Shown here one piece after another: positions 1-17,027 of a DNA stretch of 64,000 nt. A program made the position numbers and the translations under genes. Position 1 is the stretch's first letter. Each line of letters starts with the position of its first letter. The notes beneath the pieces were generated by a model. The model worked only from the letters and a program-made list of their open reading frames with translations, did not search any database and was not told where the DNA came from. This DNA comes from an uncultured virus (IMG/VR IMGVR_UViG_3300023049_000387) (Duplodnaviria > Heunggongvirae > Uroviricota > Caudoviricetes): positions 1 through 64,000 of the IMG/VR virus record IMGVR_UViG_3300023049_000387, one strand, 5' to 3'.

Positions 1-40
1 ATTCCGAAAGGTATTGTGGGTTCGAGTCCCACTACGCCCA
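1..40 (+). tRNA. 3' part of a class II tRNA (long variable arm), truncated by window edge
   Basis: variable-arm hairpin, T-arm GTGGG-TTCGAGT-CCCAC, 3' acceptor strand; anticodon outside window. Confidence 0.8.
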
Positions 41-50
41 CTTAGTACAT

Positions 51-123
51 GCTCCGTTCGTCTAGTGGACTAGGACCCCAGGCTTTCAACTTGGTAACGG
101 GAGTTCAATTCTCCCACGGAGTA
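51..123 (+). tRNA. tRNA-Glu(TTC)
   Basis: acceptor GCTCCGT/ACGGAGT, anticodon arm CCAGG-CTTTCAA-CTTGG, T-loop TTCAATT. Confidence 0.92.
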
Positions 124-205
124 CTAGTTTTAATATTGTTTAAAATAGGATTATAATAATATAATGCTTATATTTGCCTATTATTTAATTTTAAAAAGCT
201 TTTAA

Positions 206-370
206 ATGGAAAAAAACACAATACAAGATTTTAAGTGTGTATATGTTTATAGAACTGGTAAAAAAATACATGAATGTGTATTTAAAGCCTACAATGTTGA
301 GCAAGCTAAGACACATTTTTCGTTTTTTTATCCGAAAAGGATATTGAAAGAAATTGAATTACAAAAATAA
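206..370 (+). CDS. small hypothetical protein (54 aa, MEKNTIQDF...)
   Basis: ORF read from sequence; TATATTTG motif upstream (~169-176); abuts next ORF. Confidence 0.5.
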   Translation: MEKNTIQDFKCVYVYRTGKKIHECVFKAYNVEQAKTHFSFFYPKRILKEIELQK

Positions 371-376
371 ATTATT

Positions 377-595
377 ATGGTTTTAAAAATAGAGATAGAA
401 GGAATTGGCGAATTCGACATAAAACATGATTTGTTACATCGAGGTAATCGACCAAGACTGAAAACTTACCATAAAGGGATATTTAGAGAAGTATCTTTTA
501 ATAGCTTTGAAGACTATCTGAATCCTACCTATCAGAGAGGATTTGATTATGAAGGAACTGAGATACAGATTAAAATTTTAGAAAATACAGATTAA
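377..595 (+). CDS. hypothetical protein
   Basis: ORF track; N-terminus (IEIEGIG) resembles that of ORF 21794. Confidence 0.6.
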   Translation: MVLKIEIEGIGEFDIKHDLLHRGNRPRLKTYHKGIFREVSFNSFEDYLNPTYQRGFDYEGTEIQIKILENTD

Positions 596-642
596 TTTAA
601 GAGGGAGAGTAAACTTTTAATATATAGTGTAATATAACAATT

Positions 643-717
643 ATGAGAACAATTAATAACATAGCAATAATAGCGATAGGCAAAGGGAAAACTCATTGGC
701 TGGGAATTGTTATGTAA
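643..717 (+). CDS. attenuator leader peptide 1 (24 aa, MRTINNIAIIAIGKGKTHWLGIVM)
   Basis: short ORF between a TAATATATA motif (618-626) and a terminator; ATA/GCN/GGN-rich, matching downstream tRNA-Ile(TAT), Ala, Gly. Confidence 0.75.
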   Translation: MRTINNIAIIAIGKGKTHWLGIVM

Positions 718-740
718 TTAATTTAATTATAAATTATCAT

Positions 741-774
741 AAACCCAGTCAGAAATGACTGGGTTTTTTATTTT
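741..774 (+). terminator. attenuator terminator upstream of tRNA cluster
   Basis: AAACCCAGTCA-GAAA-TGACTGGGTTT + T tract; 5' arm can alternatively pair with TGGCTGGG (697-704). Confidence 0.85.
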
Positions 775-783
775 ATTATAAAT

Positions 784-857
784 TGGTATGTAGCTTAGAT
801 GGTAAAAGCACATGGCTTATATCCATGAGATAGTGGGTTCGATACCCATCATACCAA
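784..857 (+). tRNA. tRNA-Ile(TAT)
   Basis: acceptor TGGTATG/CATACCA, anticodon arm CATGG-CTTATAT-CCATG. Confidence 0.88.
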
Positions 858-865
858 CAAAATAA

Positions 866-939
866 GCAGGTAACGCATAAGTGATGGTGCACTAGCCTTC
901 CAAGCTAGAATAGAATCGGTTTGATCCCGATTACCTGCT
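866..939 (+). tRNA. tRNA-Gly(TCC)
   Basis: acceptor GCAGGTA/TACCTGC, anticodon arm CTAGC-CTTCCAA-GCTAG. Confidence 0.85.
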
Positions 940-950
940 CGATATAAAAT

Positions 951-1024
951 GCAAATGTAGCTCAATTGGCTAGAGTGTCTGATTTCCATTCAGAAAGTTG
1001 TAGGTTCGAATCCTATCATTTGCT
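951..1024 (+). tRNA. tRNA-Gly(TCC)
   Basis: acceptor GCAAATG/CATTTGC, anticodon arm TCTGA-TTTCCAT-TCAGA. Confidence 0.88.
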
Positions 1025-1031
1025 CATTAAT

Positions 1032-1109
1032 GGGGGATTAGCTCAGTCTGGTCGTAAGCGATAGCTTTGCAAGCTGTGTCATACATCGGTTCAAATCCGA
1101 TATCCTCCA
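1032..1109 (+). tRNA. tRNA-Ala(TGC)
   Basis: acceptor GGGGGAT/ATCCTCC with G3:U70, anticodon loop TTTGCAA. Confidence 0.88.
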
Positions 1110-1401
1110 CAGGTTAATTAAAAAAAACAATAATTATAGAAGATTTGAGTGCGAGATAGATAGAGAGAGGAGTAATTACTAAATTTGCATCAGATGAATT
1201 GGAGAAGTTGTCTAAAAATCATCAGGCTAGAAAATATCAAAGCTTCACTATAGATAGGTGAGTTGTTGATATTGTGGACATGTCACCGATTTCTAAGCTA
1301 ACAAATTCAGTAGATGTGATAGTTTATGGTGGTGATTCATTAATGGAGATTTCTTAGAAACATATTAATAATATATATATAGAGAAAATGTACATATTAT
1401 T

Positions 1402-2157
1402 ATGATTATAAGATTTAGAAGTAGAGGAGAAAAAGTTAAGGATTTGCAAAACTTGTTAGGACTAAAACCTGATGGTATATTTGGTCCTAACACTTTGAAA
1501 GCTTTGAAGAATTTTCAAAGAGATAATGGATTAAGCGTAGATGGTATAGTTGGTCCTAATACTTGGTCTGTTTTAGTAAAAAACGATAAGAATAGAATAA
1601 GACCAATTTACGATGTTGATCTAAACGAAGAAGATTCTGTATCTGATCCAGAGTGTATGTTCTGTGTAGAAGATATTGAGGAAACACAACCTTTGTCCCC
1701 TAGTACAAGGGAACTTATAAACCTAATAGAATCTAGTGATATTACTAGGAATATAAAAAGGCTTGTTTTCCATTGTACTGCAACATCTCAAAAAGCTACT
1801 GTATCTGCCATTGTGAATTATTGGAAGAATACACTTGGGTGGCGTTCACCAGGTTATCATATAATTGTTAGGCCAGATGGAACTTGGAATCAACTACTAG
1901 ACTTTAACAGAGTCTCTAATGGTGTTCGTGGTATCAATTCTACTACTATAAATATATCATATATTGGTGGTGTTGACCGAAATGGTAGAGCATTGGATAA
2001 TAGAACTAAAAAGCAAAAGGATGTCTATGAAACCATTTATAGAGCTTTTAAGCATAAATTACCTAGAATAACATTTCATGGACATAATGAATTTTCATCA
2101 AAAGCATGTCCATCTTTTAATGTTAAAAATTGGATAAAGTCTTTAAGAGTAATTTAA
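1402..2157 (+). CDS. endolysin: peptidoglycan-binding domain + N-acetylmuramoyl-L-alanine amidase (Amidase_2)
   Basis: PG_binding_1 motifs (DGIFGPNT, DGIVGPNTW); T7-lysozyme-like HCTA, GYH, GHNEF..KACPSF. Confidence 0.9.
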   Translation: MIIRFRSRGEKVKDLQNLLGLKPDGIFGPNTLKALKNFQRDNGLSVDGIVGPNTWSVLVKNDKNRIRPIYDVDLNEEDSVSDPECMFCVEDIEETQPLSPSTRELINLIESSDITRNIKRLVFHCTATSQKATVSAIVNYWKNTLGWRSPGYHIIVRPDGTWNQLLDFNRVSNGVRGINSTTINISYIGGVDRNGRALDNRTKKQKDVYETIYRAFKHKLPRITFHGHNEFSSKACPSFNVKNWIKSLRVI

Positions 2158-2285
2158 TTAGTATATATTTGCATAGTAAGAATTCTAAAAGAAAGAAAAA
2201 TTATAATATTATTTTACTATATATCATGATGTTGCATGTTTTTAGATGAATTAACAACACTAATCACTTAATAATACAAATCTAT

Positions 2286-2714
2286 ATGACCACAATTCAA
2301 ACAAATAATATAATTAACTTTTATTTCAATATTAGCACTGAATGTGGTATTGATATATTACATCTATCACCAAGCTATCTTAGAGAAAAGTGGATACTCC
2401 ATATAGGAACTGATATTGAAAATAATAATATAACCAAAAGTGTTAAGTTGGATACTTGGACTAAAATATGGGGTGTTACTGATAAAAATACAACATCAAT
2501 ATATTATATAATTCTAGAATTAAATTCAGTTCCACTAAGGGAAGCTAATATAACGTCTGTAGTTAATAAAATTATTCCTTATATTGATGAAAATAAGATA
2601 AACAAAGAAGAATATAATGGTTTACACCCATCAATAAATAGTTGTAAGGATCAATGGATGATGAAGAAAGAAAACAAAAGATACTTAAATATTCAAATGT
2701 TATTGAATGACTGA
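2286..2714 (+). CDS. hypothetical protein
   Basis: ORF track. Confidence 0.6.
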   Translation: MTTIQTNNIINFYFNISTECGIDILHLSPSYLREKWILHIGTDIENNNITKSVKLDTWTKIWGVTDKNTTSIYYIILELNSVPLREANITSVVNKIIPYIDENKINKEEYNGLHPSINSCKDQWMMKKENKRYLNIQMLLND

Positions 2715-2737
2715 TATTTATATATAAGAGAAAAACA

Positions 2738-3193
2738 ATGAAATTAAGAAAGACTATAGCAACCACAATGAGAGGATATCTTAATGAGAATAATAGTAAT
2801 GAAAGTCATTTTTTATCTGAAAGTGAAAAATATGGCTCTTATGAAGGTATTATTCATTCTGATATAGAAAAAGTCAAGAATTAGTTCTCAAAACGAGGTA
2901 TTGACTACAATTCATATCTTAATCAAATTGAACTACCTGTAGCATTTTTAAACAATATAAATGTAGAATTAAAATATAGAGGAAAGGGATATGGTGATGA
3001 ACTATATTTTGATTTTGAACAGAATTGTTATTATTATAACACTAAATGCATAATATTAGAAAGTGATAGTGGCGAATCACAGAAGAAAGGTTTTAATTTG
3101 GACAATTGGTATGAAATCTTAGACTATGAGATAATTGGGGAAGAAAGTGGTAATTCAATTATGAAAAAAAAATTAATTAGTTCACAACGATGA
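2738..3193 (+). pseudogene. GNAT-family acetyltransferase interrupted by an in-frame TAG (2882-2884)
   Basis: frame continues through the TAG; acetyl-CoA motif NINVELKYRGKGYG and LDNWYE..Y. Confidence 0.65.
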
Positions 3194-3254
3194 TGGTGAT
3201 AATAGTGCTTTACTTAATTCTGATTATGAAATGATAATTATTTAAAAATAAATT

Positions 3255-3476
3255 ATGGGACTATACGATACAGTAAAAGTACCTTGCCCTTCATGTGGTG
3301 AGAAGAAAGATTTTCAAAGTAAGAGTGGTGATGGTTTTTTAGAAGTAGTTGATTTAGAAAACTGCCCATATGATATACTAGTAGGCGTAAACAGACATTC
3401 ACCCCATACTTGTAAGTGTGGAGAAATATTTAAAGTGGATTTAAATACTAGAAAAAGTGTAAAAACAGAAAAATAG
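3255..3476 (+). CDS. small Zn-ribbon phage protein
   Basis: MGLYDTV..CPSCG..FQSK..CKCG. Confidence 0.7.
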   Translation: MGLYDTVKVPCPSCGEKKDFQSKSGDGFLEVVDLENCPYDILVGVNRHSPHTCKCGEIFKVDLNTRKSVKTEK

Positions 3477-3733
3477 ACTATGATAATGTCCCAAATATCT
3501 ATTAAATAAGGGACTTTAAAAATTAGGTAATTTTATACATTGTTGTGCAGAGTAGGTTATTAATTTAATTATGAGATGAGTAGTATTAATTATATAAAAA
3601 ATACAACTTATTATCTGTTTGTAAGTATAAGTGTGTAAGTGCTACTTATGATAAACTTCTAATATCACAAACAATCAATTTTAATAAAAGCATATACTAG
3701 AAAATAGAAAATAAAAAATAATAAATTAAATAT

Positions 3734-4969
3734 ATGAATAACACATCAATTATAGATTCATTTACTGAGCTTAAGTCAGACAAAATGATTAATAAAATAG
3801 AGATAATGGAAATCCTAGACTCTGTTTTTAGATTTGAGTTTAGAAAAAAATATGATACAGATGAAAACTTTGATATAATTCTAAACCCAGATAACGGAGA
3901 TTTAGAAATATGGCAAAACAAAATCGTTGTACAAGATGGCGAGGTTGAAAACCACAATACTGAAATAGAAATTTCAGAAGTTCTTAAGGTGGAGTCAGAT
4001 TTTGAAATAGGGGAAGAATATCCACAAGAATTCAAAATATCAGAATTAGGAAGAAGATCTATATTAAGTTTAAGACAGAATCTAAAGGCTAGAATAAAAG
4101 ACTACGAAAATAAATCAACAATAGAGAAGTTTGAAGATATGATTGGATATATTTTCAATGCCGAAGTCCATCACATAAAAAGAAATATGGTTATATTACT
4201 AGATGATGAGGGTATTGAAATTTGTTTACCAAAAGATAATCAGATACCTGGTGAGTTTTACAGAAAAGGTGATACAATATCATTTGTGGTAGAAGAAGCT
4301 GAAATTAGAAACAATAAGCCATACATTATTGCATCAAGAACATCAAGTAAGTTTCTAGAAAGAATAATGGAACAAGAAATACCTGAAATATTCGATGGTC
4401 TAATAAATATAAAGAACATAGTTAGAGTACCTGGTATTAAAGCTAAGGTAGCAGTGGAAACATATGATGATAGAATTGATCCTGTTGGAACTTGTGTTGG
4501 TAGTAGAGGAAGTCGAATAATGGCAGTTACTAGAGAGCTAAATGGTGAGAGTATAGATATCATAAGCTACACAAATAATATGGATTTATATATAACTAGG
4601 TCGTTAAAACCAGCCGTTGTTAAATTTATAAAGGTAGAAGATGGTAAAGCTGACGTTCATTTAAATGGTGAAGATATTGGTAAGGCTATTGGTAAGAAAG
4701 GTTCTAATATAAGATTAACTAGCTTACTTACTGGTCTAGAAATAAATCTTATAAATGATGAGCAAGCTACAGAGGAAGATATAGATCTTATGGAATTTTC
4801 TGATGAAGTTGATTTATGGGTAATAAATGAATTTAAAAAAGCTGGTATAGATACTGCTAAATCATTACTATCTTATGGTTTTAGTGAACTTGTAAATATG
4901 ACAGATTTAGAGGATGTGACTATTGAGAAGATAATAAAAATAATCAAACAAGAATTTGTTGATAGTTAA
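3734..4969 (+). CDS. nusA: transcription termination/antitermination factor NusA
   Basis: NusA N-domain, S1, KH (RIDPVGTCVGSRGSRI; GKAIGKKGSNIRL), C-terminal HhH-like tail; 411 aa. Confidence 0.95.
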   Translation: MNNTSIIDSFTELKSDKMINKIEIMEILDSVFRFEFRKKYDTDENFDIILNPDNGDLEIWQNKIVVQDGEVENHNTEIEISEVLKVESDFEIGEEYPQEFKISELGRRSILSLRQNLKARIKDYENKSTIEKFEDMIGYIFNAEVHHIKRNMVILLDDEGIEICLPKDNQIPGEFYRKGDTISFVVEEAEIRNNKPYIIASRTSSKFLERIMEQEIPEIFDGLINIKNIVRVPGIKAKVAVETYDDRIDPVGTCVGSRGSRIMAVTRELNGESIDIISYTNNMDLYITRSLKPAVVKFIKVEDGKADVHLNGEDIGKAIGKKGSNIRLTSLLTGLEINLINDEQATEEDIDLMEFSDEVDLWVINEFKKAGIDTAKSLLSYGFSELVNMTDLEDVTIEKIIKIIKQEFVDS

Positions 4970-4978
4970 AACAAAATA

Positions 4979-5206
4979 ATGTCAAATAGAAACTATAAAA
5001 TAGATAAGGAAATCGAGGTAACACTTAAAGTTAAAGTAAAGATTAATTCTTGCAATGACTATAATAGGTTGAACGAATTACAAATAGAAAATAATGTATC
5101 TGATTTTAAAAATGATATTAAAGAACATCTGCTAGATAAGCTAAGAAATAGCTATCAAGAAGAAGTTACAATAGGTATTGATTTTTGGGATTATGAAGTA
5201 GATTAA
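4979..5206 (+). CDS. hypothetical protein
   Basis: ORF directly after nusA. Confidence 0.55.
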   Translation: MSNRNYKIDKEIEVTLKVKVKINSCNDYNRLNELQIENNVSDFKNDIKEHLLDKLRNSYQEEVTIGIDFWDYEVD

Positions 5207-5265
5207 TTAAATACCATAAAATACTTGTATAATATTTTTTATTTGTATATTTGTAAAAAAATAAT

Positions 5266-5535
5266 ATGAAAACTTTTAAGAAATCATTTATTATAATAGG
5301 ACTTGGCGTACTTAACATACTACATGCTAGCCTTCATATATTTCAATTTGTTCAATCTTTTATGCTTGTAAAGGCATCTATAGAACTACAAGACACACCA
5401 ACAAATCACAGTGGTTTATTTTCAGATTTACTACACAGTCCATATTTTACAATAGTTTGGGCATTAGTAGGCATCTTGACCTTATACATCGGTATCAAGG
5501 ATTTTATTCATCATAAAAAATGTAAAAATGGGTAG
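5266..5535 (+). CDS. small membrane protein (2 TM)
   Basis: two hydrophobic segments; TATATTTG upstream. Confidence 0.65.
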   Translation: MKTFKKSFIIIGLGVLNILHASLHIFQFVQSFMLVKASIELQDTPTNHSGLFSDLLHSPYFTIVWALVGILTLYIGIKDFIHHKKCKNG

Positions 5536-6433
5536 TTTTAATATAATATGTTCAATATCTAATACAGTCATAAGTGACGGCGATAGAGCAAGTATTCAGA
5601 TATTAGTCCCTGGTGGAAGTGAAAATTTCAATTCACATAAGAACATAATTGTATCAGAAAGTGGTACACAAGAGTTCTTCTCACCATTTGGGTTTCCAAT
5701 AAATGGTCGATATGATAGCTATGGAAGATTAAGACATATAGAAAATGACATAAATGTAGAAATGTTAGAAAAATTCTTTAACATAAATATATATGAATTA
5801 CTTAATCTAATACATTCTAGTAGTAGAACTTATGATGAAGAGGTTAAAAACACAGACATAATTGACAATTTGTTCATATCTTTTTTTAGAACAGAAGTCA
5901 TTGACTACATAGACAATGGAAGCCTAGATATAAATATTGACAACCCCGAAGAATATACTAGAGGTGCTTACATAAAAAGTATTTTAGATGGTATTGATGA
6001 TTATAACATAACAAACATATCAGAAAGAATATCATATATTGAAAGTATGGCAGAAGCTGATATTACAGAAGAAATTTCGAAAGAGTTTTTTGATTTAATA
6101 AGAAAACAAACTACAAGAAAAAAGACATATATTCAATCATTATGGCAATATAATATGTTTGAATTGCTACCAATTGATTTAATATTTAAAGACTATATAA
6201 TTAAACAATATAATCTTATTTCAACGATGACAAATGAATTGAAAGTATTATTGAGACCAAGCTTATATGGATCACAAGAAGGTGATGATTTATATAGATA
6301 CAAATTTAATAAAGAAATAAATAATCTAATCATTAATGATTTAGAATCAGAATCAGAATGGTTAGATGGTGAAGAAAAATCCATTATAAAGACACATAAT
6401 CGATCTGTCAAACTAGACAAATTGTATTCATAG
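5528..6433 (+). CDS. hypothetical phage protein
   Basis: 301-aa ORF, MGSFN..CSIS..GRYDSYG. Confidence 0.75.
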   Translation: MGSFNIICSISNTVISDGDRASIQILVPGGSENFNSHKNIIVSESGTQEFFSPFGFPINGRYDSYGRLRHIENDINVEMLEKFFNINIYELLNLIHSSSRTYDEEVKNTDIIDNLFISFFRTEVIDYIDNGSLDINIDNPEEYTRGAYIKSILDGIDDYNITNISERISYIESMAEADITEEISKEFFDLIRKQTTRKKTYIQSLWQYNMFELLPIDLIFKDYIIKQYNLISTMTNELKVLLRPSLYGSQEGDDLYRYKFNKEINNLIINDLESESEWLDGEEKSIIKTHNRSVKLDKLYS

Positions 6434-6697
6434 ATGAAATTTAATAAAGAAGATAGCCTTATTGGTATGCATTTTGTATACATGTCTGGATATGATAAGA
6501 ATCCTAAATTTGATAAGATAATAAAACTCGTTGAACCAGTAGGTTTAACTATACAAGAATTTATAAATAAAGCTTATTATCCTATAGATTCATATGTAAT
6601 TTCACAAAATGGCATAAGGTACGAAATGAGAGAGATAAAGCTAACTCCAATTAGTGAAATTAGAAAAAACAGATTAAAAAAATTAGGAATTAAATAG
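6434..6697 (+). CDS. hypothetical protein
   Basis: ORF abutting upstream gene. Confidence 0.6.
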   Translation: MKFNKEDSLIGMHFVYMSGYDKNPKFDKIIKLVEPVGLTIQEFINKAYYPIDSYVISQNGIRYEMREIKLTPISEIRKNRLKKLGIK

Positions 6698-6713
6698 ATA
6701 TATGTAATTAGTT

Positions 6714-7151
6714 ATGGCAGAACTTAAAAAGAAAAGAAAACGTTATAGATTAAATACATTTTTCTACATTGAAGTATATGATATAGCAGCACTTAGGAGT
6801 AAAAAACTAAATAAAGTAATGGGATTAGATAATAACATAAGACCCACCTATTTTAGTACACTAAGTAGAAATACTTCTATAAAGAATATATATCTTTCTA
6901 GCTTTTGGAAGAAGAAACAAAGTGCTATCAACCAAAAGGCTGCTATGAAAGAAATGTGTGATAAAAAGAATCTAACTATGGAAATAATCGAAATTAATAG
7001 ATTAGAGTTTATAAAATTAATACCGCTAAAAGTACCAGAGTGTTCAAAATGGGATATGGGATTATACATAATTAATATAGGCATTGTGCGTGATGAGAAA
7101 GCATATATGGAAACATTAAAGTGTAGGGAAATAGACAACATTAATGAATAA
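6714..7151 (+). CDS. hypothetical protein (possible paralog of 7144-7560)
   Basis: shared RY..F/YYIE.Y...LR..KL pattern. Confidence 0.6.
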   Translation: MAELKKKRKRYRLNTFFYIEVYDIAALRSKKLNKVMGLDNNIRPTYFSTLSRNTSIKNIYLSSFWKKKQSAINQKAAMKEMCDKKNLTMEIIEINRLEFIKLIPLKVPECSKWDMGLYIINIGIVRDEKAYMETLKCREIDNINE

Positions 7152-7560
7152 TCAAAATAAGACACGAATTAGATATCTATATTATATAGAAATGTACACA
7201 CTTGTACAATATAGAAGATTAAGGATTGCTCAAGTGTTGTCTCATCAAACAGAAACATTAGAGACCCTTTACTATAATGGACCTAGGGGATATATCGAAC
7301 CCCAAAATAATATATACTTTGCCTTATTTTTTAGAAGTTCAGAAAGTGCAAGGAAGTGTATAAACCTAGTTAGTGAGAATAACTACAAAAATTTTCAATT
7401 TATTATTAACAAAATTAGTTCGACTGACTTTGTTAATATAATACCAACTACAAAACCATTTAGGATAAACACAAGTCTTACATCAAGATACTACTATAGA
7501 AATAACCTAGGGCTAAGAAATGTTGAACTAACTCACTTAAAAGAATTAAATTTAAAATAA
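7144..7560 (+). CDS. hypothetical protein
   Basis: ORF overlapping upstream stop. Confidence 0.6.
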   Translation: MNNQNKTRIRYLYYIEMYTLVQYRRLRIAQVLSHQTETLETLYYNGPRGYIEPQNNIYFALFFRSSESARKCINLVSENNYKNFQFIINKISSTDFVNIIPTTKPFRINTSLTSRYYYRNNLGLRNVELTHLKELNLK

Positions 7561-7570
7561 TTAATACACT

Positions 7571-7945
7571 ATGGAAAGCATGGATACAAATATTAAAGAC
7601 ATTATAAGAGGTATTAAAATTGATATAGTTAATAATAGATATAAATGTATATCAGCATACAAAATACCAAAAGACGTTGAGCATTGGTTGAATTGTCCAA
7701 TTTGTGATTTAAAGCCACTTATATGGGAATTTAATAATGGATCTTCTACTGGTTGTGGCTGTGGTGAAAACCAATACAGAAACTTTAGTATTGTGACAGA
7801 ATCTATAATGTCACATATAAGTAGAAATAATGGATCTGCACTTAATTATGACCATCGTAAATTGAAAAATAACTGGAATCATTGGGTATGTACTAGAGAA
7901 GAACTAGAAACACACAAAGGATTATTAGAAGAGGGTAAGTGGTAG
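7571..7945 (+). CDS. Cys-containing hypothetical protein
   Basis: CPIC..CGCG motifs. Confidence 0.6.
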   Translation: MESMDTNIKDIIRGIKIDIVNNRYKCISAYKIPKDVEHWLNCPICDLKPLIWEFNNGSSTGCGCGENQYRNFSIVTESIMSHISRNNGSALNYDHRKLKNNWNHWVCTREELETHKGLLEEGKW

Positions 7946-7946
7946 T

Positions 7947-8288
7947 TTATTCCACAATATCTTCTGCTGTTTCTGATAGTGCTATACAAGCCTTTGCAGT
8001 TTCTTCGTGTTTAAACTCTAAACACCTATCAGCACAATAAACAGAACTTTCAAATACCAAATCCGATATATTAGAGAGATGGTGTGATTTATTCTCAAGT
8101 GCATACACAAAAGCTTCACATATCTTAATAAACTCTCCTAGGTCTACTGAAAAGGCTTTAACTTTAGTCTTTTCCATTGACTTATTTAGTAACTCTATAC
8201 AGCTATTAACATCATCTATTAGCTGAGAGTTATCATTTACCTCCTCTGTTTCTTCATTCTGTTCTAAAAACTTTTTAAGATGTATCAT
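7947..8288 (-). CDS. hypothetical protein with MxHLKKF.E N-terminus
   Basis: ORF; TAATATATA motif upstream. Confidence 0.65.
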   Translation of the reverse strand: MIHLKKFLEQNEETEEVNDNSQLIDDVNSCIELLNKSMEKTKVKAFSVDLGEFIKICEAFVYALENKSHHLSNISDLVFESSVYCADRCLEFKHEETAKACIALSETAEDIVE

Positions 8289-8404
8289 TATAATTTATTT
8301 ATTTACTTATATATTAAATATTTACATAGTAAACAGATACAAATGTTAAAGTATCCTTTTTATATAAACTTTTCCATAGGTATGTATATATTAATAAAGA
8401 AACT

Positions 8405-9076
8405 ATGGTAGAGTTATTACATTTTGATATAGAAACCACAAGTGAGTATGAAAACTTCGAATCATTTAAGGAAAACGATGAGAGGGGATCAGCTTTATTT
8501 GAAGCCAAATGCAAAAAAATGAATTGGATAGAAAAGTGTGGGAGTATAGAGCAAGCATACATTGAAAATGGTGGGATAATATCAACATATGGTAAGATAA
8601 TATGTATATCATTTGGATTTACCGTTAACGGAGAAAAAAGAATAAAATCGTTATACTCTGATAATGAAAAGGATTTAGTCAATAAGTTCAATGAATCTCT
8701 AAAATACATAGAAAAAAAAGCTTTTCATTTATGTGGATTCAGGATAAAACATTTTGATATTCCTTGGATATTACACAAATTACATAAATATGGTATAGAG
8801 CCAGTTGATATGATATATGTATATGATAAGAAACCATGGGAGATGAGAGTAGCTGATATGTCTGATGATTGGAAAACTGGTTACTTATTATCACATACCT
8901 TTGATGAAATGTGTTATGAATTAGGTGTGGAATCCCCTAAGAATGAACTAGATGGTTCTAAAGTCCATAAAGCATACTGGTCTGGTAATTTAGATTCAGT
9001 TGTAAAATACTGCGAATCAGATGTTTCATCATCAATTGATGCTGGGATTAAACTATATAAACATTATAAACATTAG
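8405..9076 (+). CDS. 3'-5' exonuclease (DnaQ/PolB-exo-like)
   Basis: ExoI FDIET, ExoII GFRIKHFDIP, ExoIII YCESDV. Confidence 0.88.
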   Translation: MVELLHFDIETTSEYENFESFKENDERGSALFEAKCKKMNWIEKCGSIEQAYIENGGIISTYGKIICISFGFTVNGEKRIKSLYSDNEKDLVNKFNESLKYIEKKAFHLCGFRIKHFDIPWILHKLHKYGIEPVDMIYVYDKKPWEMRVADMSDDWKTGYLLSHTFDEMCYELGVESPKNELDGSKVHKAYWSGNLDSVVKYCESDVSSSIDAGIKLYKHYKH

Positions 9077-9078
9077 AT

Positions 9079-9519
9079 ATGGGAGAAAAAATCACAAAAG
9101 GAGATTTATTTTTATTTACATCACATTATGATAATGGTCGTTCAGTCCATTACTATGGTTCACTTGTAGAAATAATTGGTATTGCAAGTAATAGCATAAT
9201 GATGGTAACTGGTGAAGGAGATTTAAACACTAAAGAGAAATTGCTTATAAGAATAATAAAGGATAGTAACTTTAAAGACATTGATTCTAGTAAATTTTCT
9301 AAAACGCTTGTAAAAGATTTAAAAATTAAATTTAAATTTAATCTAGAAAATGATACCATTGAAGCAGATTCACATGATGTGCACAAGATAAATATAGACT
9401 ATGGATTAGTTGAAATTGATAAAAAAATAGATAGGCTTTTAAAAGAGAAAACTCTTTACAATGACTTTCATATCAGGACAAGAAAGCTAAGGAAATTATT
9501 AGATGATTCTAATGACTAG
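9079..9519 (+). CDS. hypothetical protein
   Basis: ORF track. Confidence 0.6.
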   Translation: MGEKITKGDLFLFTSHYDNGRSVHYYGSLVEIIGIASNSIMMVTGEGDLNTKEKLLIRIIKDSNFKDIDSSKFSKTLVKDLKIKFKFNLENDTIEADSHDVHKINIDYGLVEIDKKIDRLLKEKTLYNDFHIRTRKLRKLLDDSND

Positions 9520-10067
9520 TTATTCTCAAATGGACTTATCTTAGAATCTATCAAAGACATCAATTCATTGTGTGTTTGTGATAGATTCCTTGATACTAAA
9601 CCATCTAAAATAAATCTAGTTTCTGTCACATACTTGCTGACAAATTTATCACTACCTTGTTCTAAATCTGAGCAATTGTGTAATCTATCAGCTAACTTTA
9701 TAACAAGAGCATAACTAGTCATATTTAGCATTTTATCTAATAAATACTCTGATTTACCTACCTTCTCTATTTTGTTATTATCAGATGTAAGTTCTTCTAC
9801 TATACTACTGACCATTTTTCCAAACTCTTCTTCTATATTACTAATAGTAACATCACAATCTTCAACAGTGTCGTGAAGTAATGCCGCAATACAAATTAGC
9901 TCCTTATTTTTACTCACCTTGACCTCCCTAACTATTTTGCTTACTGCAATTGGGTGCCATGCATATTCTTTGCCAGAAAATTTTCTAAACTGTCCATCGT
10001 GTGCCTCTATCATAAATAATAGAGCCTTTCTTAGCTTTGTTTCTTTTTTAGTTTTCATAGTTGTCAT
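9516..10067 (-). CDS. HD-domain (p)ppGpp hydrolase-like protein (SpoT-HD/Mesh1, small alarmone hydrolase)
   Basis: AHDGQFRK..G.EY.WHP..V, AALLHDTVED, V.ELT, IKLADRLHN. Confidence 0.88.
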   Translation of the reverse strand: MTTMKTKKETKLRKALLFMIEAHDGQFRKFSGKEYAWHPIAVSKIVREVKVSKNKELICIAALLHDTVEDCDVTISNIEEEFGKMVSSIVEELTSDNNKIEKVGKSEYLLDKMLNMTSYALVIKLADRLHNCSDLEQGSDKFVSKYVTETRFILDGLVSRNLSQTHNELMSLIDSKISPFENN

Positions 10068-10154
10068 ATATATTAAACAAATATAACCTTTTTATTTGAT
10101 ATATACAACAGGGGAGATATATACTTTTATATATATAATAAAATATAAAAAATC

Positions 10155-10313
10155 ATGGGTACAAAGAATAAAATGTTTTCATTTAGAATACCACCAAAAT
10201 TATTAGAAGAATATCACGAAATGTGTGATGAGAACTCAATAAACATATCAAAAAGGATTAGAAAGTTCATTGAGCGTGATTTAGAAGGATGGAGAAATAA
10301 GAAAAAGGAATAA
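10155..10313 (+). CDS. ribbon-helix-helix DNA-binding protein (52 aa)
   Basis: not in track; MGTKNKMFSFRIPPKLLEEYHEMCDENSINISKRIRKFIE fits RHH strand-helix-helix pattern. Confidence 0.65.
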   Translation: MGTKNKMFSFRIPPKLLEEYHEMCDENSINISKRIRKFIERDLEGWRNKKKE

Positions 10314-10423
10314 ATTTAATAAAATATTTCATAAATACTTTAATAATTCGAAATATATTCAGTATGTTTGTATCATATAATTTACTACAGATAATAGTAT
10401 TATGAACAAACAAAGAAGTTATT

Positions 10424-10660
10424 ATGAAAAATCTTAAAAAATGGTTTAGAAATTTATCAATTACTAACCTTGCTCACTACTACTGGCTAAAAATAAGAGA
10501 AGAATCAAAAGATAGACATGGTGAAAAATTATGTTATTGTGGACACACTAATAAATGTAGTTGTGATGACCCAGATAAACAAACTTTTAAAGATTCTGTA
10601 AAAAGAGGAACTATAATTATATTTGATAAAAAGAACGGTTGGAAAACTTCCAAAAAATAA
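10424..10660 (+). CDS. hypothetical protein (CxCGHxxxCxC)
   Basis: ORF track; TATGTTTG motif upstream. Confidence 0.55.
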   Translation: MKNLKKWFRNLSITNLAHYYWLKIREESKDRHGEKLCYCGHTNKCSCDDPDKQTFKDSVKRGTIIIFDKKNGWKTSKK

Positions 10661-12001
10661 ATGTAATAAATATAAAACTATGGAATCTAATAAAAAAGAA
10701 ACTAATGGGATATTGTCAGTAGTTCTAAATGTTTTCCTAGTAGCTACAGAAAATAGGCTAATAAGCTTCGCTATCAAAAATAAAGAATTAAGCCCTGAGC
10801 AGACTAGTTATATAGAGTCTGAATACGGCAAAATAGAATCTATCGAAGATGGTAGTAGTGGGTTCACTAAAACTGTTATATACATTTAATAAAATGAACT
10901 ATGTTAATTAGAAAAATGTATACCTTGTACATAAATACAACACTTAGAACTGCATACTTTGGTAATCTAAAGTTTGGATGTAGAATAGGTGGTGCAAAGT
11001 TTGGTAAAGTAATTGATTGTAATTTATCTGATTTGAAACACAACCTAAGAATACTAGCAGAAGAAAATTATTTAATTAATAAACGCACGTATTAAAATGA
11101 AAATAACAAAAGGAACATTCAAATATACTGGTATTAACGATATAGATATTGACTTAGTCACAGACAAGTGGAATCATTTATGGATGCTTGCTGAGTGGAA
11201 AGTAGACAATTCTTGGAAAATAGTCAAATATATTAGAAAAGACTCTCAAAATACCGAGATAAAGCTAACGATATCATGTGAACAAGCAACTGAACTTATT
11301 AAAAACCTTGGCTTAATTAATATTAATACTGGGTTTCAAAGTGGTTACTCTTGGAGGACTAAAAAGGATATGGTGTATTTAGAGAACTGGAGATTGGCAA
11401 GACATAAGAAATTACAGACCAAATTAATAACAAACAACTTTTAAATTATGAAAGATACATTTAGATACTTCATCAGAAAGAACTTCTCTGAGATTGGCGA
11501 AATAAGCAATGAGGATATTGATGAAATCGGAATTGAATTTCACAAGTACTTGGATAGCAAATTAAATGATGACCAAAAGGCTAAAATACTACCAAAAAGT
11601 GCGATTGATGTAATAATGAATAGCGACCACCCACTTAAAACAAACGGATTTGAGCCAGCATATATGCTACATTTTACACAATGGACAAAGGAACAAAGTG
11701 AATCGCAAGACTAGTTAAATGTTTTTATAAATTTTTTGGCTATTAGCTTCTATATTTACACAATAATAATAATAAAACAATGAATAAAGACAATAATTCT
11801 ATTATAGATACTAATGTACCTCTTTTTAAGTATATCGAGATTAAGGATTATGACAATGATAGTGTTGTTAAGCGACTAGATGTAAGCGATAAATCCGATA
11901 GGCGTATAGATACTATCGAAAGTGGGATTGATATAAACTTAAACCATGACCAATACTATACGTTTAGTCATGATAGTGAAGTTGAATTAGAACTCATATG
12001 A
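10623..12001 (+). other. run of small hypothetical early-type ORFs (10623/10680-10889, 10901-11095, 11097-11444, 11448-11714, 11780-12001)
   Basis: tightly packed co-oriented ORFs; no recognisable domains. Confidence 0.55.
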
Positions 12002-12030
12002 AAATAAATTTAAATCTTTTTAAAAAACAC

Positions 12031-12141
12031 TTGTGAGAAACAAATATTAGTTATATATTTGCACAGAACCTAAAATAATTTAAACTTTTAGTAAAAAAAA
12101 GAATATAAATAACCAAAGGAAGAAATAAAATTTAATATATA
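12031..12141 (+). promoter_or_regulatory. compound promoter region of tRNA cluster 3: TATATTTG (12054-12061), AAACTTT..TATAAA (12082-12109), TAATATATA (12133-12141)
   Basis: three recurring motif classes; homologous to 16740-16849. Confidence 0.6.
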
Positions 12142-12147
12142 ATAGTG

Positions 12148-12267
12148 ATGAAAAATTTAAACCTAAATACAAATAGAAACTTAACGCTCAATGTGGTGAA
12201 TATTATGTTATGTAATAGACCATCTAGGGGTTCTAGTGTATTTAATAAATTTCATCTTATGACATAG
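12148..12267 (+). CDS. attenuator leader peptide 2 (39 aa, MKNLNLNTNRNLTLNVVNIMLCNRPSRGSSVFNKFHLMT)
   Basis: codons 3-24 encode only N,L,T,R,V,I,M,C, the amino acids of the downstream array; contains antiterminator TCTAGGGGTT (12223-12232). Confidence 0.78.
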   Translation: MKNLNLNTNRNLTLNVVNIMLCNRPSRGSSVFNKFHLMT

Positions 12268-12290
12268 TGAAATAAAAAATACAAATAACT

Positions 12291-12330
12291 AAAACCCCTA
12301 GAAATGAAAATTCTAGGGGTTTTTTTGTTT
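12291..12330 (+). terminator. attenuator terminator upstream of tRNA cluster
   Basis: AAAACCCCTAGAA-loop-TTCTAGGGGTTTT + T tract ending just before the first tRNA. Confidence 0.88.
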
Positions 12331-12333
12331 TAT

Positions 12334-12418
12334 GCTAGTGTGGTGGAATGGTAGACACGAGGGATTCAAAATCCTTTAATCAGAAATGATTATATGAGTT
12401 CAAATCTCATCATTAGTA
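12334..12418 (+). tRNA. tRNA-Leu(CAA)
   Basis: anticodon arm AGGGA-TTCAAAA-TCCTT, long variable arm. Confidence 0.85.
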
Positions 12419-12430
12419 CATATATTACAA

Positions 12431-12504
12431 TCCTCGTTAGCTCAGTGGTCAGAAGCTCTCGTCTGTTAAACGAAAGGTCGGTGGTTCGAATCCACCACGA
12501 GGAG
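12431..12504 (+). tRNA. tRNA-Asn(GTT)
   Basis: acceptor TCCTCGT/ACGAGGA, anticodon loop CTGTTAA. Confidence 0.9.
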
Positions 12505-12512
12505 CAAATAAT

Positions 12513-12594
12513 CGGCATATACCAGCCCAAGCTGATACCTTGGAGAACTGTAGTTGGTAAGTTGAAAACGTAGGTTCGAGTCCTACTGTGCCGA
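12513..12594 (+). tRNA. non-canonical tRNA-Ile(GAT) lacking a D-arm at the normal position
   Basis: acceptor CGGCATA/TGTGCCG, anticodon arm CCAAG-CTGATAC-CTTGG only 7 nt after the acceptor, perfect T-arm. Confidence 0.7.
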
Positions 12595-12608
12595 CTTTTA
12601 TGACACTT

Positions 12609-12693
12609 GTCGGAGTGGTGGAATGGCAGACACGCTGGGTTTAAGCTCCAGTGGGCAGTGATGTCCGTGAGGGTTCGAGTCCCTTCTCCGATA
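12609..12693 (+). tRNA. tRNA-Leu(TAA)
   Basis: anticodon arm CTGGG-TTTAAGC-TCCAG, long variable arm. Confidence 0.9.
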
Positions 12694-12702
12694 CGAATAA
12701 AT

Positions 12703-12792
12703 GCCAGTGTGGTGAAATTGGATGAAACACGCTAGTCTTAGGAACTAGTACCCAAGAGGTAAACATTGTCGGTTCGAGTCCGACCACTGGTA
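12703..12792 (+). tRNA. tRNA-Leu(TAG)
   Basis: anticodon arm CTAGT-CTTAGGA-ACTAG, long variable arm. Confidence 0.9.
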
Positions 12793-12802
12793 CAAAATAA
12801 AT

Positions 12803-12883
12803 GCCTTAGTAGTCCCGATTGTCTTCTAAACAATTAAGGGTAATTGGAAGCTGAAAATATAGGTTCGAGTCCTATCTAGGGTA
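12803..12883 (+). tRNA. non-canonical tRNA-Arg(TCT) lacking a D-arm at the normal position
   Basis: acceptor GCCTTAG/CTAGGGT, anticodon arm ATTGT-CTTCTAA-ACAAT, perfect T-arm; same layout as 12513-12594. Confidence 0.7.
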
Positions 12884-12892
12884 CAAATAAAA

Positions 12893-12966
12893 AGTTCTGT
12901 AATTCAGGGGTTCAGAATGCTTCCCTTACAAGGAAGAAGTCGTTGGTTCGAATCCAACCAGAACTA
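12893..12966 (+). tRNA. tRNA-Val(TAC)
   Basis: anticodon arm CTTCC-CTTACAA-GGAAG. Confidence 0.9.
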
Positions 12967-12972
12967 CAAAAT

Positions 12973-13044
12973 GTACCTATGACCGAGTGATTTAGGTAGG
13001 TGGCTGCAACCCATCGTACGGGGGTTTGAATCCCTCTAGGTACT
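12973..13044 (+). tRNA. tRNA-Cys(GCA)
   Basis: anticodon loop CTGCAAC, U73 discriminator. Confidence 0.85.
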
Positions 13045-13051
13045 CTAATAT

Positions 13052-13124
13052 GCTGACATAGCTCAATTGGTAGAGCATTTGATTTGTAATCAAAAGGTTG
13101 TGGGTTCGAAGCCCTCTGTCAGCT
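13052..13124 (+). tRNA. tRNA-Thr(TGT)
   Basis: anticodon arm TTTGA-TTTGTAA-TCAAA. Confidence 0.9.
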
Positions 13125-13134
13125 CTGAAAAAAT

Positions 13135-13224
13135 GCACTAGTGGCGAAGTGGATGAAACGCATCAGACTTAAAATCTGATACCCTTTGAGGTGAACAACG
13201 TGGGTTCAAATCCCACCTGGTGTA
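13135..13224 (+). tRNA. tRNA-Leu(TAA)
   Basis: anticodon arm TCAGA-CTTAAAA-TCTGA, long variable arm. Confidence 0.88.
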
Positions 13225-13228
13225 CTAA

Positions 13229-13314
13229 ATCGCTATGAACAGATGTGGTAATTGTGCTTGGCTCATATCCAAGTTAGAGAAATCTTATTGTTGGTTCAAG
13301 TCCAACTAGCGGTA
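13229..13314 (+). tRNA. tRNA with CAT anticodon (Met/Ile2) and enlarged variable arm
   Basis: anticodon arm CTTGG-CTCATAT-CCAAG; extra arm TTAGAGAAATCTTATT. Confidence 0.8.
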
Positions 13315-13316
13315 CA

Positions 13317-13357
13317 AAAAAAGAGGGGATATAATTAATTATATCCCCTCTTTTTTA
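13317..13357. terminator. bidirectional intrinsic terminator
   Basis: AAAAAAGAGGGGATATAAT/ATTATATCCCCTCTTTTTT between convergent units. Confidence 0.85.
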
Positions 13358-13368
13358 TATTATTTGTT

Positions 13369-13800
13369 TTATTTATTTTTAAGACTTTCTATATCATCCC
13401 TTATCTCATCTATATCATCTAAAGATATATCATCCAAATCTTTACCAGCATCACCAGTATTATCTGTTACTACAGGAATAACATCTTCTATCCCTTTATC
13501 TATTTCCTTAGCAATGTAATCATCCCCTGCAATACTCTCTCTTTCTATTTGTAAACAGAACTGTGCTAATACTGCTAAATCATCATTTTTCTGTGCTAAA
13601 TCGAATACTTTGCTATTAAGTTCATATTTTGACATACCTCTAAATTTCTTTCTAGTATAGTAGTCATAGAAATCTTGCTCTTCTCTAGACATAACATTAG
13701 ATGGTTTTCTATCAATACCAAATATCTCTGTCTTTTTAGCTTTTGCAGTTACTGCTTCGCTCACTTTTTTATTGTTAAAGTCTTTATATTTTTTTATCAT
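13369..13800 (-). CDS. hypothetical protein (putative virion-packaged)
   Basis: MIKKYKDFN N-terminus; TAATATATA upstream. Confidence 0.65.
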   Translation of the reverse strand: MIKKYKDFNNKKVSEAVTAKAKKTEIFGIDRKPSNVMSREEQDFYDYYTRKKFRGMSKYELNSKVFDLAQKNDDLAVLAQFCLQIERESIAGDDYIAKEIDKGIEDVIPVVTDNTGDAGKDLDDISLDDIDEIRDDIESLKNK

Positions 13801-13818
13801 ACTCTTATATATTAATTT

Positions 13819-14454
13819 TTATTTACCATTTATTTCTTCAAACTCTTTTTCTAAATAAAGATAAATGTATTTTTTATACCTTTTCTTAATATCATCACTC
13901 ACCGCCCTTGATATTCCCATCCATAGACCAATACTTTTTAATTTAGAAAATGCATCTTTTATATCATTTGGATTTCTTTCCATTATTAGGTCTGTTATAG
14001 ATTGTGAAAAAGCCATTACCTCATCTTTATTCGAAAAATAAGCCTTTTGATCTGAAATGTTTCCTAAAAATTCAAAATTTAAATCAGCTGGTCGTCTCAA
14101 ACCTTGTTTTAAATGTATATTTTCATGCTTTAATACGTGGATAGCAAAACTGATATCATTACTCTCAAGATATCTTACATTATTAGCAAGAACCAATCTA
14201 GGCTTTTTAGTAACTGGGTTTAATAAACCAAATACTTTCATACCATTTGGTGGTGCATCTTCCCTCATTTTATCAGTTGGTAATTCATCATAGAATGTTC
14301 TGTAATAAACAACCTCTATATCATTTTTTGCACCAATTCTTTGTAATTCATCAACACTAATACTCCACTCAGCCTCGACCTCTTTTATAAACTTTTCTAA
14401 ATTATCAGACTTCCAATCTATTATTGCCTCATTAAACTTTTTTAAATGTTTCAT
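13819..14454 (-). CDS. HExxH zincin-like protein with MKHLKKFNE N-terminus
   Basis: HENIH motif, downstream E (DEVMAF). Confidence 0.6.
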   Translation of the reverse strand: MKHLKKFNEAIIDWKSDNLEKFIKEVEAEWSISVDELQRIGAKNDIEVVYYRTFYDELPTDKMREDAPPNGMKVFGLLNPVTKKPRLVLANNVRYLESNDISFAIHVLKHENIHLKQGLRRPADLNFEFLGNISDQKAYFSNKDEVMAFSQSITDLIMERNPNDIKDAFSKLKSIGLWMGISRAVSDDIKKRYKKYIYLYLEKEFEEINGK

Positions 14455-14470
14455 TATTATTCTTTTTTTT

Positions 14471-16696: not shown

Positions 16697-16739
16697 AACT
16701 CTATATATTAAAAAAGATTATTTTAATTTAAAAAAAACC

Positions 16740-16849
16740 TTGTATAAACCATTTATTTATATTATATTTGCATAGAAATAATATAATTCTAAACTTTTAT
16801 AAAAAAAAGTCTATAAATAACCATAGAGAGAAATAAAAGTTAATATATA
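16740..16849 (+). promoter_or_regulatory. compound promoter region of tRNA cluster 4
   Basis: TATATTTG 16763-16770, AAACTTT..TATAAA 16791-16817, TAATATATA 16841-16849. Confidence 0.6.
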
Positions 16850-16856
16850 AAACATA

Positions 16857-16961
16857 ATGAAAAATTTAAACTTAAACATAGTAGTTAACCCTCAACCCCA
16901 AGTTGATATCGATCAGGATTCTGATACGAAAGGTGCTAACTATGTTTTAAATTTAAGTTGA
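16857..16961 (+). CDS. attenuator leader peptide 3 (34 aa, MKNLNLNIVVNPQPQVDIDQDSDTKGANYVLNLS)
   Basis: PQPQVDIDQDSD matches downstream Asp/Gln/Pro tRNAs; antiterminator GCTAACTATGTTTT (16935-16948). Confidence 0.78.
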   Translation: MKNLNLNIVVNPQPQVDIDQDSDTKGANYVLNLS

Positions 16962-16977
16962 TATTTAAATAATAAAA

Positions 16978-17023
16978 ACAAAAACTCGGTTAGTCTTTTA
17001 GATTAACCGAGTTTTTTTTGTTT
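16978..17023 (+). terminator. attenuator terminator upstream of tRNA cluster
   Basis: AAAACTCGGTTAGTCT-TTT-AGATTAACCGAGTTTT + T tract. Confidence 0.88.
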
Positions 17024-17027
17024 ATAT

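Follow-up and report, generated by a model that had tools for sequence, protein, structure and literature searches.

A predicted leader-peptide attenuator ahead of a megaphage tRNA array, with leader codons that match the downstream tRNAs

Leader-peptide attenuation is the textbook mode of control for amino-acid biosynthesis, and transfer RNA (tRNA) genes are generally thought to be controlled by their promoters. Why should a short open reading frame (ORF) and an intrinsic terminator stand directly ahead of a block of tRNA genes in a phage genome? The question is raised by a locus that we call unit 1, located near the 5' end of a 64,000-nucleotide stretch of DNA from an uncultured virus (IMG/VR record IMGVR_UViG_3300023049_000387, positions 1 to 64,000), referred to here as the window. 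The record comprises a 78.8-kb piece of the genome of an AT-rich megaphage; the window has a base composition of 29% G+C and carries 18 tRNAs identified by ARAGORN, which are grouped in blocks, together with four additional ones found with Rfam. A preliminary description made from the letters alone had proposed for unit 1 a leader-peptide attenuator with codons matched to the tRNAs behind it. The conserved layout, the composition match over 20 units, the choice of Arg codons and the specificity of each antiterminator for its own terminator arm all bear this out, and we consider ribosome-mediated leader-peptide attenuation of transcription, giving demand-driven synthesis from the phage tRNA array, a very probable function of unit 1.

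All parts of unit 1 lie on the plus strand. The leader ORF (643..717, with the ATG at 643 and the TAA at 715-717) has 24 codons and encodes the peptide MRTINNIAIIAIGKGKTHWLGIVM; a conserved box, GAGGGAGAGTAAACTTTTAATATATA (601..626), ends 16 nucleotides (nt) upstream of its ATG and is a putative promoter or 5' element. Codons 7-15 (661..687) read ATA GCA ATA ATA GCG ATA GGC AAA GGG, so that eight of the nine specify Ile, Ala or Gly, exactly as had been claimed. A predicted region 1 (651..668), the anti-antiterminator, pairs with positions 706-723 when no ribosome is present, and the minimum free energy (MFE) of the nascent leader is -19.0 kcal/mol. Region 2 (692..723) holds the antiterminator strand TGGCTGGG (697-704) and the stop codon. 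The intrinsic terminator, AAACCCAGTCA-GAAA-TGACTGGGTTT followed by a T-run (741..769), comprises 11 pairs in the terminator scan (741-766) and has an energy of -18.0 kcal/mol; its 5' arm is CCCAGTCA (744-751), its 3' arm is TGACTGGG (756-763), and a run of six T follows at 764-769. Positions 1-1400 of the window contain two terminator-like sites against 0.4 expected, and the hairpin at 741-766 is one of them.

After a gap of only 14 nt between the T-run and the first tRNA gene, the array contains tRNA-Ile(UAU) (784..858; ARAGORN, and 67.3 bits with Rfam), two tRNA-Gly(UCC) genes (866..939 and 951..1025) and tRNA-Ala(UGC) (1032..1110), the last two being detected by both ARAGORN and Rfam. This is the set of tRNAs that the preliminary description had listed, although the first Gly gene is a weaker call (44 bits with Rfam; found by ARAGORN only at -ps80, at 863-938). 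The -ps80 setting was used as a cross-check inside the arrays only, and at -ps70 ARAGORN returned 215 calls, which we regard as noise. The leader codons at 661-687 are matched by the downstream Ile(UAU), Ala(UGC) and Gly(UCC) tRNAs. The promoter scan, whose models leave Bacteroidota-type and phage promoters out of its scope, detected no sigma-70-like site in positions 767-783.

Unit 1 therefore combines the hallmarks of an attenuator, namely an upstream ORF on the same strand, a cluster of cognate codons, a terminator ahead of the tRNA genes and an antiterminator that is mutually exclusive with the terminator. We infer from this anatomy how leader translation, ribosome stalling and read-through would be coupled. 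Transcription would start upstream, probably at the box at 601-626, and a ribosome would translate the 24-codon leader. If charged tRNA-Ile(AUA), tRNA-Ala or tRNA-Gly were scarce, the ribosome would stall in codons 7-15 (661-687) and cover region 1, leaving TGGCTGGG free to pair with the 5' arm at 744-751; the terminator would then be blocked, and RNA polymerase would continue into tRNA-Ile(UAU), the two tRNA-Gly(UCC) and tRNA-Ala(UGC). With fast decoding, the ribosome would reach the stop codon at 715-717 and cover region 2, and in an untranslated leader region 1 would pair with region 2; in both cases the hairpin at 741-766 would form and transcription would end at the T-run. The outcome would be a negative feedback in which the tRNAs are made when the cell decodes their codons slowly.

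The pairing on which this switch depends can be observed in the sequence. As already proposed in the preliminary description, TGGCTGGG (697-704) is complementary to CCCAGTCA (744-751), with eight pairs of which one is G-U, and the stop codon follows this segment by 11-18 nt. The duplex has an energy of -14.4 kcal/mol (z = -3.9), a value that was reached in one of 300 shuffled sequences. When the two alternative structures were folded with the ribosome placed at different positions, the unit-1 leader was predicted to behave like a trp attenuator: in the absence of a ribosome the pairing of 651-668 with 706-723 leaves the 5' arm free and allows the terminator to form, and with the A-site at the ATA codon at 661 or the GCG codon at 673 the antiterminator of eight base pairs forms. 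With the ribosome at the stop codon only a weak fold is predicted (-2.9 kcal/mol, six arm bases paired).

The window contig was analyzed together with 20 fetched loci, which cover tRNA regions of the related phages LR745206 and LR756502 and of three IMG/VR contigs; an element was accepted if a hairpin of -12 kcal/mol or stronger with a T-run was located at most 70 nt upstream of a tRNA. The search yielded 22 such elements, and an ORF of 16-39 codons precedes all but one of them, the remaining one following a gene of 205 codons. Twenty of the units are distinct. The distance from the end of the ORF to the hairpin is 17-38 nt in the leader units, with one at 75 nt, and the gap between the T-run and the first tRNA is 2-22 nt across the units, which leaves no room for a promoter; the tRNAs would therefore have to come from read-through. 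Inspection by eye adds at least three units, at places where a tRNA escaped ARAGORN or an ORF is inserted.

Two sibling units are located in the window itself, both on the plus strand. Unit 2 (12148..12327, with the ATG at 12148 and the terminator at 12292-12327) encodes the leader MKNLNLNTNRNLTLNVVNIMLCNRPSRGSSVFNKFHLMT and precedes an array of Leu, Asn, Leu, Leu, Val, Cys, Thr, Leu and Met tRNAs (12334-13315); its antiterminator, TCTAGGGGT (12223-12231), forms a duplex of -17.3 kcal/mol (z = -6.3). Unit 3 (16857..17020, with the ATG at 16857 and the terminator at 16982-17020) encodes MKNLNLNIVVNPQPQVDIDQDSDTKGANYVLNLS and precedes Asp, Gln, Asp, Gln and Pro tRNAs (17028-17516); its constrained folds are trp-attenuator-like, with the same predicted behaviour as unit 1. 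The composition of the other leaders follows their arrays in the same manner. The poly-Gln leaders MTTSFQQQQQQQINRTD and MTTTQQIQQQQINQTD head Gln tRNAs, four of them in the case of MTTSFQQQQQQQINRTD; a leader that begins with MKKLVITSSSRSSRK precedes an Arg and four Ser tRNAs, and MKTINNTSKSSSRSSSMSEIRLYS and a leader beginning with MKKLVITSSSRSSRKHH are likewise found ahead of Arg and Ser tRNAs. His, Phe, Trp and Lys tRNAs follow a leader that begins with MTTNSTHKNFSKSHKWFSNQ, and Gln, Pro, Pro and Trp tRNAs follow one that begins with MKNLVLNITINQQWQPQPRLFGW. The leader beginning with MNTFTNIEYYYEESERKR stands ahead of Tyr and Glu tRNAs, in an array that extends past the 5' end of the window, where tRNA-Glu is found at 51-124.

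This agreement is far above expectation. Over the 20 units pooled, 202 of the 533 leader residues belong to the amino-acid set of the unit's own tRNAs, against 85.9 expected from the composition of the phage, the background for composition and codon use being 60 ORFs (17,932 codons) of one phage only, that of the window. The mean z per unit is 3.87, as compared with 0.12 +/- 0.43 after leaders and arrays had been re-paired, and the observed value was reached in none of 20,000 permutations. Ile, Ala and Gly account for 11 of the 23 residues of the unit-1 leader, the fraction in the background being 0.172 (P = 7e-4, z = 3.9); for the run at 661-687 with its eight Ile, Ala or Gly codons in nine, P is 6e-6 for a window chosen post hoc. 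In unit 2, 24 of the 38 leader residues fall within the set of its own tRNAs.

The match can also be followed at the level of codons. Under strict wobble rules and with the ARAGORN tRNAs only, 121 of 143 codons are cognate to a downstream tRNA, against 98.3 expected (z = 5.3). Arg codons are cognate in nine of nine cases (2.5 expected), with CGN ahead of Arg(ACG) and AGA ahead of Arg(UCU), and Ile codons in 17 of 21 (13.0 expected). In the unit-1 family, which comprises the window's unit and six related ones described below, codon choice departs strikingly from randomness in its preference for GCG, GGC and GGG, which are the phage's rarest codons. GCG accounts for 14 of the 19 Ala codons against a background of 0.026, and GGC and GGG together account for 20 of the 27 Gly codons against 0.153, the favoured GGT being used in two of the 27. 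By wobble, Ala(UGC) reads GCG and Gly(UCC) reads GGG; the tRNA for GGC is Gly(GCC). The preliminary description had cautioned that GGC is not a strict cognate of the TCC anticodon, a caveat that is accounted for by a tRNA-Gly(GCC) further down the homologous array in the relatives; none was found in the 78.8-kb contig.

The layout of unit 1 recurs in LR745206 (L001/L124), in LR756502 (L002/L132) and in IMG/VR contigs. In LR745206 and LR756502 we find the box, a 27-codon leader ORF (MKNLNNISIAVIGNGAGAIREWLSYGI and MKNLHNISVGVIAIGAGSVCLWLNYVS), the CCCAGTCA..TGACTGGG hairpin with its T-run, tRNA-Ile(UAU) and then Gly tRNAs, with Gly(GCC) and Ala(UGC) further along the same strand. Two small ORFs without a Pfam match (206-370 and 377-595 on the plus strand, 54 and 72 amino acids) are located between tRNA-Glu and unit 1 in the window; they are missing from LR745206 and LR756502, where the Tyr/Glu array continues directly into the unit-1 box. 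In the array of LR745206, truncated cores similar to the catalytic parts of glycyl- and alanyl-tRNA synthetases (GlyRS and AlaRS) are found among the Ile, Gly and Ala tRNAs (L001, 2645-3385 and 3531-4277). They match the Pfam families tRNA-synt_2b and tRNA-synt_2c, and their best NCBIfam matches are glycine- and alanine-tRNA ligase, at scores far below the equivalog cut-offs. On this sequence similarity, the two cores fit a putative Gly/Ala decoding regulon.

A scan of IMG/VR with the terminator pattern CCCAGTCA..TGACTGGG returned 31 loci, among which four extra distinct unit-1 variants were recognized (L146, which equals L158, and L163, L151 and L172); L152 and L166 are copies of the window's own unit 1, and about two thirds of the 31 loci are ordinary gene ends with no tRNA behind them. 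A viral scan with the box and an MKNL pattern was mostly unspecific, since only six of 120 fetched IMG/VR loci had a short ORF followed within 200 nt by a tRNA. In the six other members of the unit-1 family that were found, the leader is kept as an ORF of 21-27 codons, and in five of these six it ends 17-28 nt ahead of the hairpin. The exception is L172, which has an early stop within the antiterminator segment and a frame unlike that of the other members. All variants hold a segment complementary to the terminator arm just before the stop codon, which is GTGGCTG in five of them, TGGCTGGG in the window and CTGATTGG in L151. L172 retains the nucleotides GTGGCTGAG..TATGTTATG in spite of its different reading frame, which argues that the antiterminator segment is constrained as RNA.

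The same segments are specific to their own terminators. In a comparison of 27 units, which kept one mis-parsed row (L170), the terminator arm paired more strongly with the upstream region of its own unit than with those of the other units (mean z of -1.16 against 0 +/- 0.15); none of 20,000 permutations was as strong, and unit 1 ranks first of the 27. Three strands change together between unit 2 (TCTAGGGGT/ACCCCTAGA/TCTAGGGGT) and its homologue L125 (CTGAGGGT/ACCCTCAG/CTGAGGGT), a compensatory change that alters the peptide from SRG to TEG. A further homologous pair has GATTCGA/TCGAATC in L123 and GTTCGA/TCGAAC in L131.

Several observations weigh against the attenuator interpretation or narrow it. 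The composition z is weak (1.41 or less) in four of the 20 units (L141, -0.34; L134:759, 0.88; L132:2157, 1.31; L132:1449, 1.41), and homologous units are non-independent samples. Many tRNAs have no leader: with a 250-nt gap rule, a listed unit stands directly before 16 of 44 array-first tRNAs. The folds are thermodynamic predictions at 37 C with an assumed ribosome footprint of 30 nt, and they do not agree with the scheme throughout. With the A-site at 685, the last regulatory codon of unit 1, the antiterminator is not predicted to form. In unit 2 the antiterminator is located 32 nt before the stop codon and is predicted to form in nearly all scenarios, even with a ribosome at the stop. A geometry in which the position of the ribosome selects the fold is thus predicted for units 1 and 3 and not for unit 2, and the simple occlusion model therefore does not explain every unit. 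Moreover, the terminator wins in every full-length MFE structure, so that the switch must be kinetic. With regard to the sequence of unit 2, the codons between the antiterminator and the stop (V F N K F H L M T) belong to other tRNA sets, and the stop codon TAG is directly followed by TGA (12223-12270).

For a sensing mechanism specific for AUA, which the preliminary description had suggested together with the observation that all four Ile codons in codons 7-15 are ATA, the counts offer thin evidence. The observation is correct, and the ORF contains two further Ile codons, 4 and 22, which are both ATT. Since ATA makes up 60% of the Ile codons in the phage ORFs, four ATA codons are unremarkable (0.6^4 = 0.13, within chance), and the seven members of the unit-1 family use ATA for 22 of their 32 Ile codons, a share to be compared with 0.60 in the background (P = 0.21). 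We therefore discarded the exclusive use of ATA as evidence for AUA-specific sensing, as it does not exceed the phage's own bias. The contrast is limited to a single leader, which precedes Ile(GAU) and has ATT or ATC for four of its four Ile codons.

How else could such loci be explained? A translated leader might sense decoding and yet act by another output than antitermination through 697-704, such as Rho access, ribonuclease processing or the stability of the tRNA precursor. The misfit of unit 2 with simple occlusion and the persistence of the terminator in all full-length MFE structures are what this explanation would lead one to expect, whereas the antiterminator segments are arm-specific and co-vary with their own arm, and every unit has a strong intrinsic terminator with its T-run; we hold it to be improbable. 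Alternatively, the leader could be a small gene of the usual kind that ends at its own terminator. Transcription of the tRNAs would then depend on leakage through this terminator or on a promoter that escaped recognition, and the codon match would reflect coincidence or a shared compositional bias. The leader peptide is indeed hydrophobic enough for a small membrane peptide, and the CCCAGTCA..TGACTGGG hairpin also closes ordinary genes, as seen in about two thirds of the 31 loci. This reading would nevertheless have to attribute to chance that 20 leaders of unrelated composition (poly-Q, S/R, H/F/K/W and E/Y among them) match their own arrays, which no permutation in 20,000 reproduced, and it leaves the choice of Arg codons and the 2-22 nt gaps unexplained, so that we give it very little credence.

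Just as little can be said for a translation-independent RNA switch, which would bind a protein, or a tRNA in the manner of a T-box, and in which the ORF would be incidental. The nucleotides that L172 keeps in a different frame do indicate that some of the conservation acts on the RNA. Against this, the ATG, the frame and the spacing from stop to hairpin are conserved, the tRNA set is tracked by amino-acid identity and not by sequence, and positions 598-783 have no Rfam match at E <= 1. In the wider Rfam search of positions 1-20000 at this threshold, only tRNAs and chance-level matches were returned, with no match to the leader. A T-box riboswitch was considered for unit 1 and rejected, since positions 1-1200 gave no match to a T-box family (E <= 1; tRNAs only). 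Finally, the logic could be reversed, with stalling leading to termination and smooth translation to read-through, and tRNA synthesis would then follow the translational capacity of the cell. In the models of units 1 and 2 a ribosome at the last regulatory codon does cover the antiterminator. For units 1 and 3, however, stalls at most regulatory codons are predicted to free it, and its loss is predicted once the ribosome has reached the stop codon. It is also hard to see what the phage would gain from a positive feedback on tRNA supply. Of the explanations considered here, this one appears to us the hardest to believe.

The attenuator proposed for unit 1 can be compared with known systems. The trpL, hisL, leuL and thrL leaders and the multivalent leader of ilvGMEDA are enterobacterial leader-peptide attenuators of amino-acid operons. 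Unit 1 resembles them in its ORF with regulatory codons, its predicted alternative 1:2, 2:3 and 3:4 hairpins, its terminator ahead of the genes and the predicted choice of fold by ribosome position, and it resembles the ilv and thr leaders in that one leader would sense several amino acids. In contrast to all of these, its targets are not biosynthetic enzymes but the tRNAs that read the leader's own codons, and the loop would therefore close on tRNA supply; moreover, the units are phage-encoded and recur as a family of modules in which every tRNA array has a leader of its own. In Escherichia coli, the pheM leader and the pheST attenuator control phenylalanyl-tRNA synthetase. There, as proposed here, a component of the decoding machinery is placed under leader-peptide attenuation through cognate codons, and the array of LR745206 also contains GlyRS- and AlaRS-like fragments; the target of pheM is a synthetase for one amino acid, whereas here tRNA genes would be controlled and the codon sets are mixed. 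In a T-box, the RNA itself captures uncharged tRNA, and translation plays no part. The T-box shares with the attenuator proposed for unit 1 the sensing of a specific tRNA state and the choice between terminator and antiterminator, but the model proposed here requires an ORF. No description of leader-peptide control of tRNA genes or of codon-matched leaders for them was found in the full-text literature that was searched, which does not extend to subscription journals.

Phage tRNA arrays are thought to offset differences in codon usage or the loss of host tRNAs, and the present phage conforms to this general pattern in that an AT-rich genome carries tRNAs for its frequent codons, such as ATA. 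As a tentative extension, we suggest that megaphages of this clade could run a modular decoding-sensor network, in which a custom test peptide ahead of each tRNA block, in some genomes with embedded synthetase fragments, would gauge the speed at which precisely its codons are read in the infected cell; the use of GCG, GGG and GGC, the rarest codons and read by wobble, may serve to make the sensor as sensitive as possible. Such a network would then be induced to stand in for host tRNAs lost through depletion or cleavage, as in host shut-off or under anticodon-nuclease defences. The attenuation proposed for the units, with the codons of the leader peptide as sensor and the tRNAs reading them as output, would in itself form a direct homeostatic loop, set up repeatedly for different codon sets in the largest known phages. 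If confirmed, this attenuation would account for the way in which giant phages adjust the dose of their many tRNAs, provide a natural read-out of codon-specific decoding speed, and suggest a phage answer to the loss of host tRNAs.

The box upstream of the leader may represent the promoter of these transcripts. A purine-rich box with AAACTTTT and TAATATATA is found upstream of most leaders, and the TTAATATATA box occurs at 21 sites of the 78.8-kb contig, on the gene-sense strand and usually 5-35 nt before an ATG, against a chance expectation of about five estimated from base composition. In L142 and L124 the box is located directly ahead of a leaderless tRNA-Met(CAU) with no ORF, and because of this position it looks like a promoter for short-leader or leaderless transcripts and not like a ribosome-binding signal. 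The exact motif ATGAAAAATTTA has merely one to three copies per related genome and is thus no family marker. Ahead of many leader-terminator-tRNA units we also observed motifs similar to TAnnTTTG, the Bacteroidota -7 promoter element, and their presence suggests a Bacteroidota host for the megaphage.

As for the phage itself, a blastn search with positions 1-8000 of the window against the phage collection gave LR745206.1, LR756504.1 and LR756502.1 as top matches, all of them uncultured phages of 634-642 kb, and a near-identical IMG/VR contig of 141.5 kb has a completeness estimate of 20%. LR745206, LR756504 and LR756502 are described as being among the largest megaphages and as coming from a freshwater lake and a subsurface sample, and a SusC-like gene is reported in LR745206 (PMC9723777). 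The standard genetic code fits the contig, in which the NusA and ClpB ORFs read through at full length. Stop-codon recoding was considered and rejected: ORFs of at least 100 amino acids cover 0.795 of the contig with code 11, against 0.82 and 0.80 with TAG and TGA, respectively, as sense codons.

Some further features of the arrays and their surroundings may be mentioned. Two tRNA-like genes at 12803-12883 and 17196-17269 were found with Rfam only (39.1 and 30.4 bits), and ARAGORN gives no normal anticodon for the latter; these could be aberrant or degenerate tRNAs within the arrays. Array 2 is closed by a GC-rich palindrome, GGGGATATAATTAATTATATCCCC (13318-13358), flanked by A- and T-runs and facing a convergent gene; it gave only chance-level matches in Rfam and is probably a bidirectional terminator. 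A NusA homologue (3734-4969 on the plus strand; TIGR01953, 313 bits with a cut-off of 253; NusA_N and KH domains) is encoded 2.6 kb downstream of the unit-1 attenuator, and positions 4352-4861 within this gene have a blastn match to LR756504. NusA favours hairpin pausing and termination, and the phage protein could tune the attenuator switches. It was rejected as a constant partner, being present in G003 (the same phage) and absent from LR745206, LR756502, G001 and G002. The phage also encodes a double AAA+ ATPase of the ClpB/Hsp104 type (22280-24421 on the plus strand) and a Cas3-like protein (27412-29661 on the minus strand) with an HD domain, a DEAD/ResIII helicase and a Cas3 C-terminal domain.

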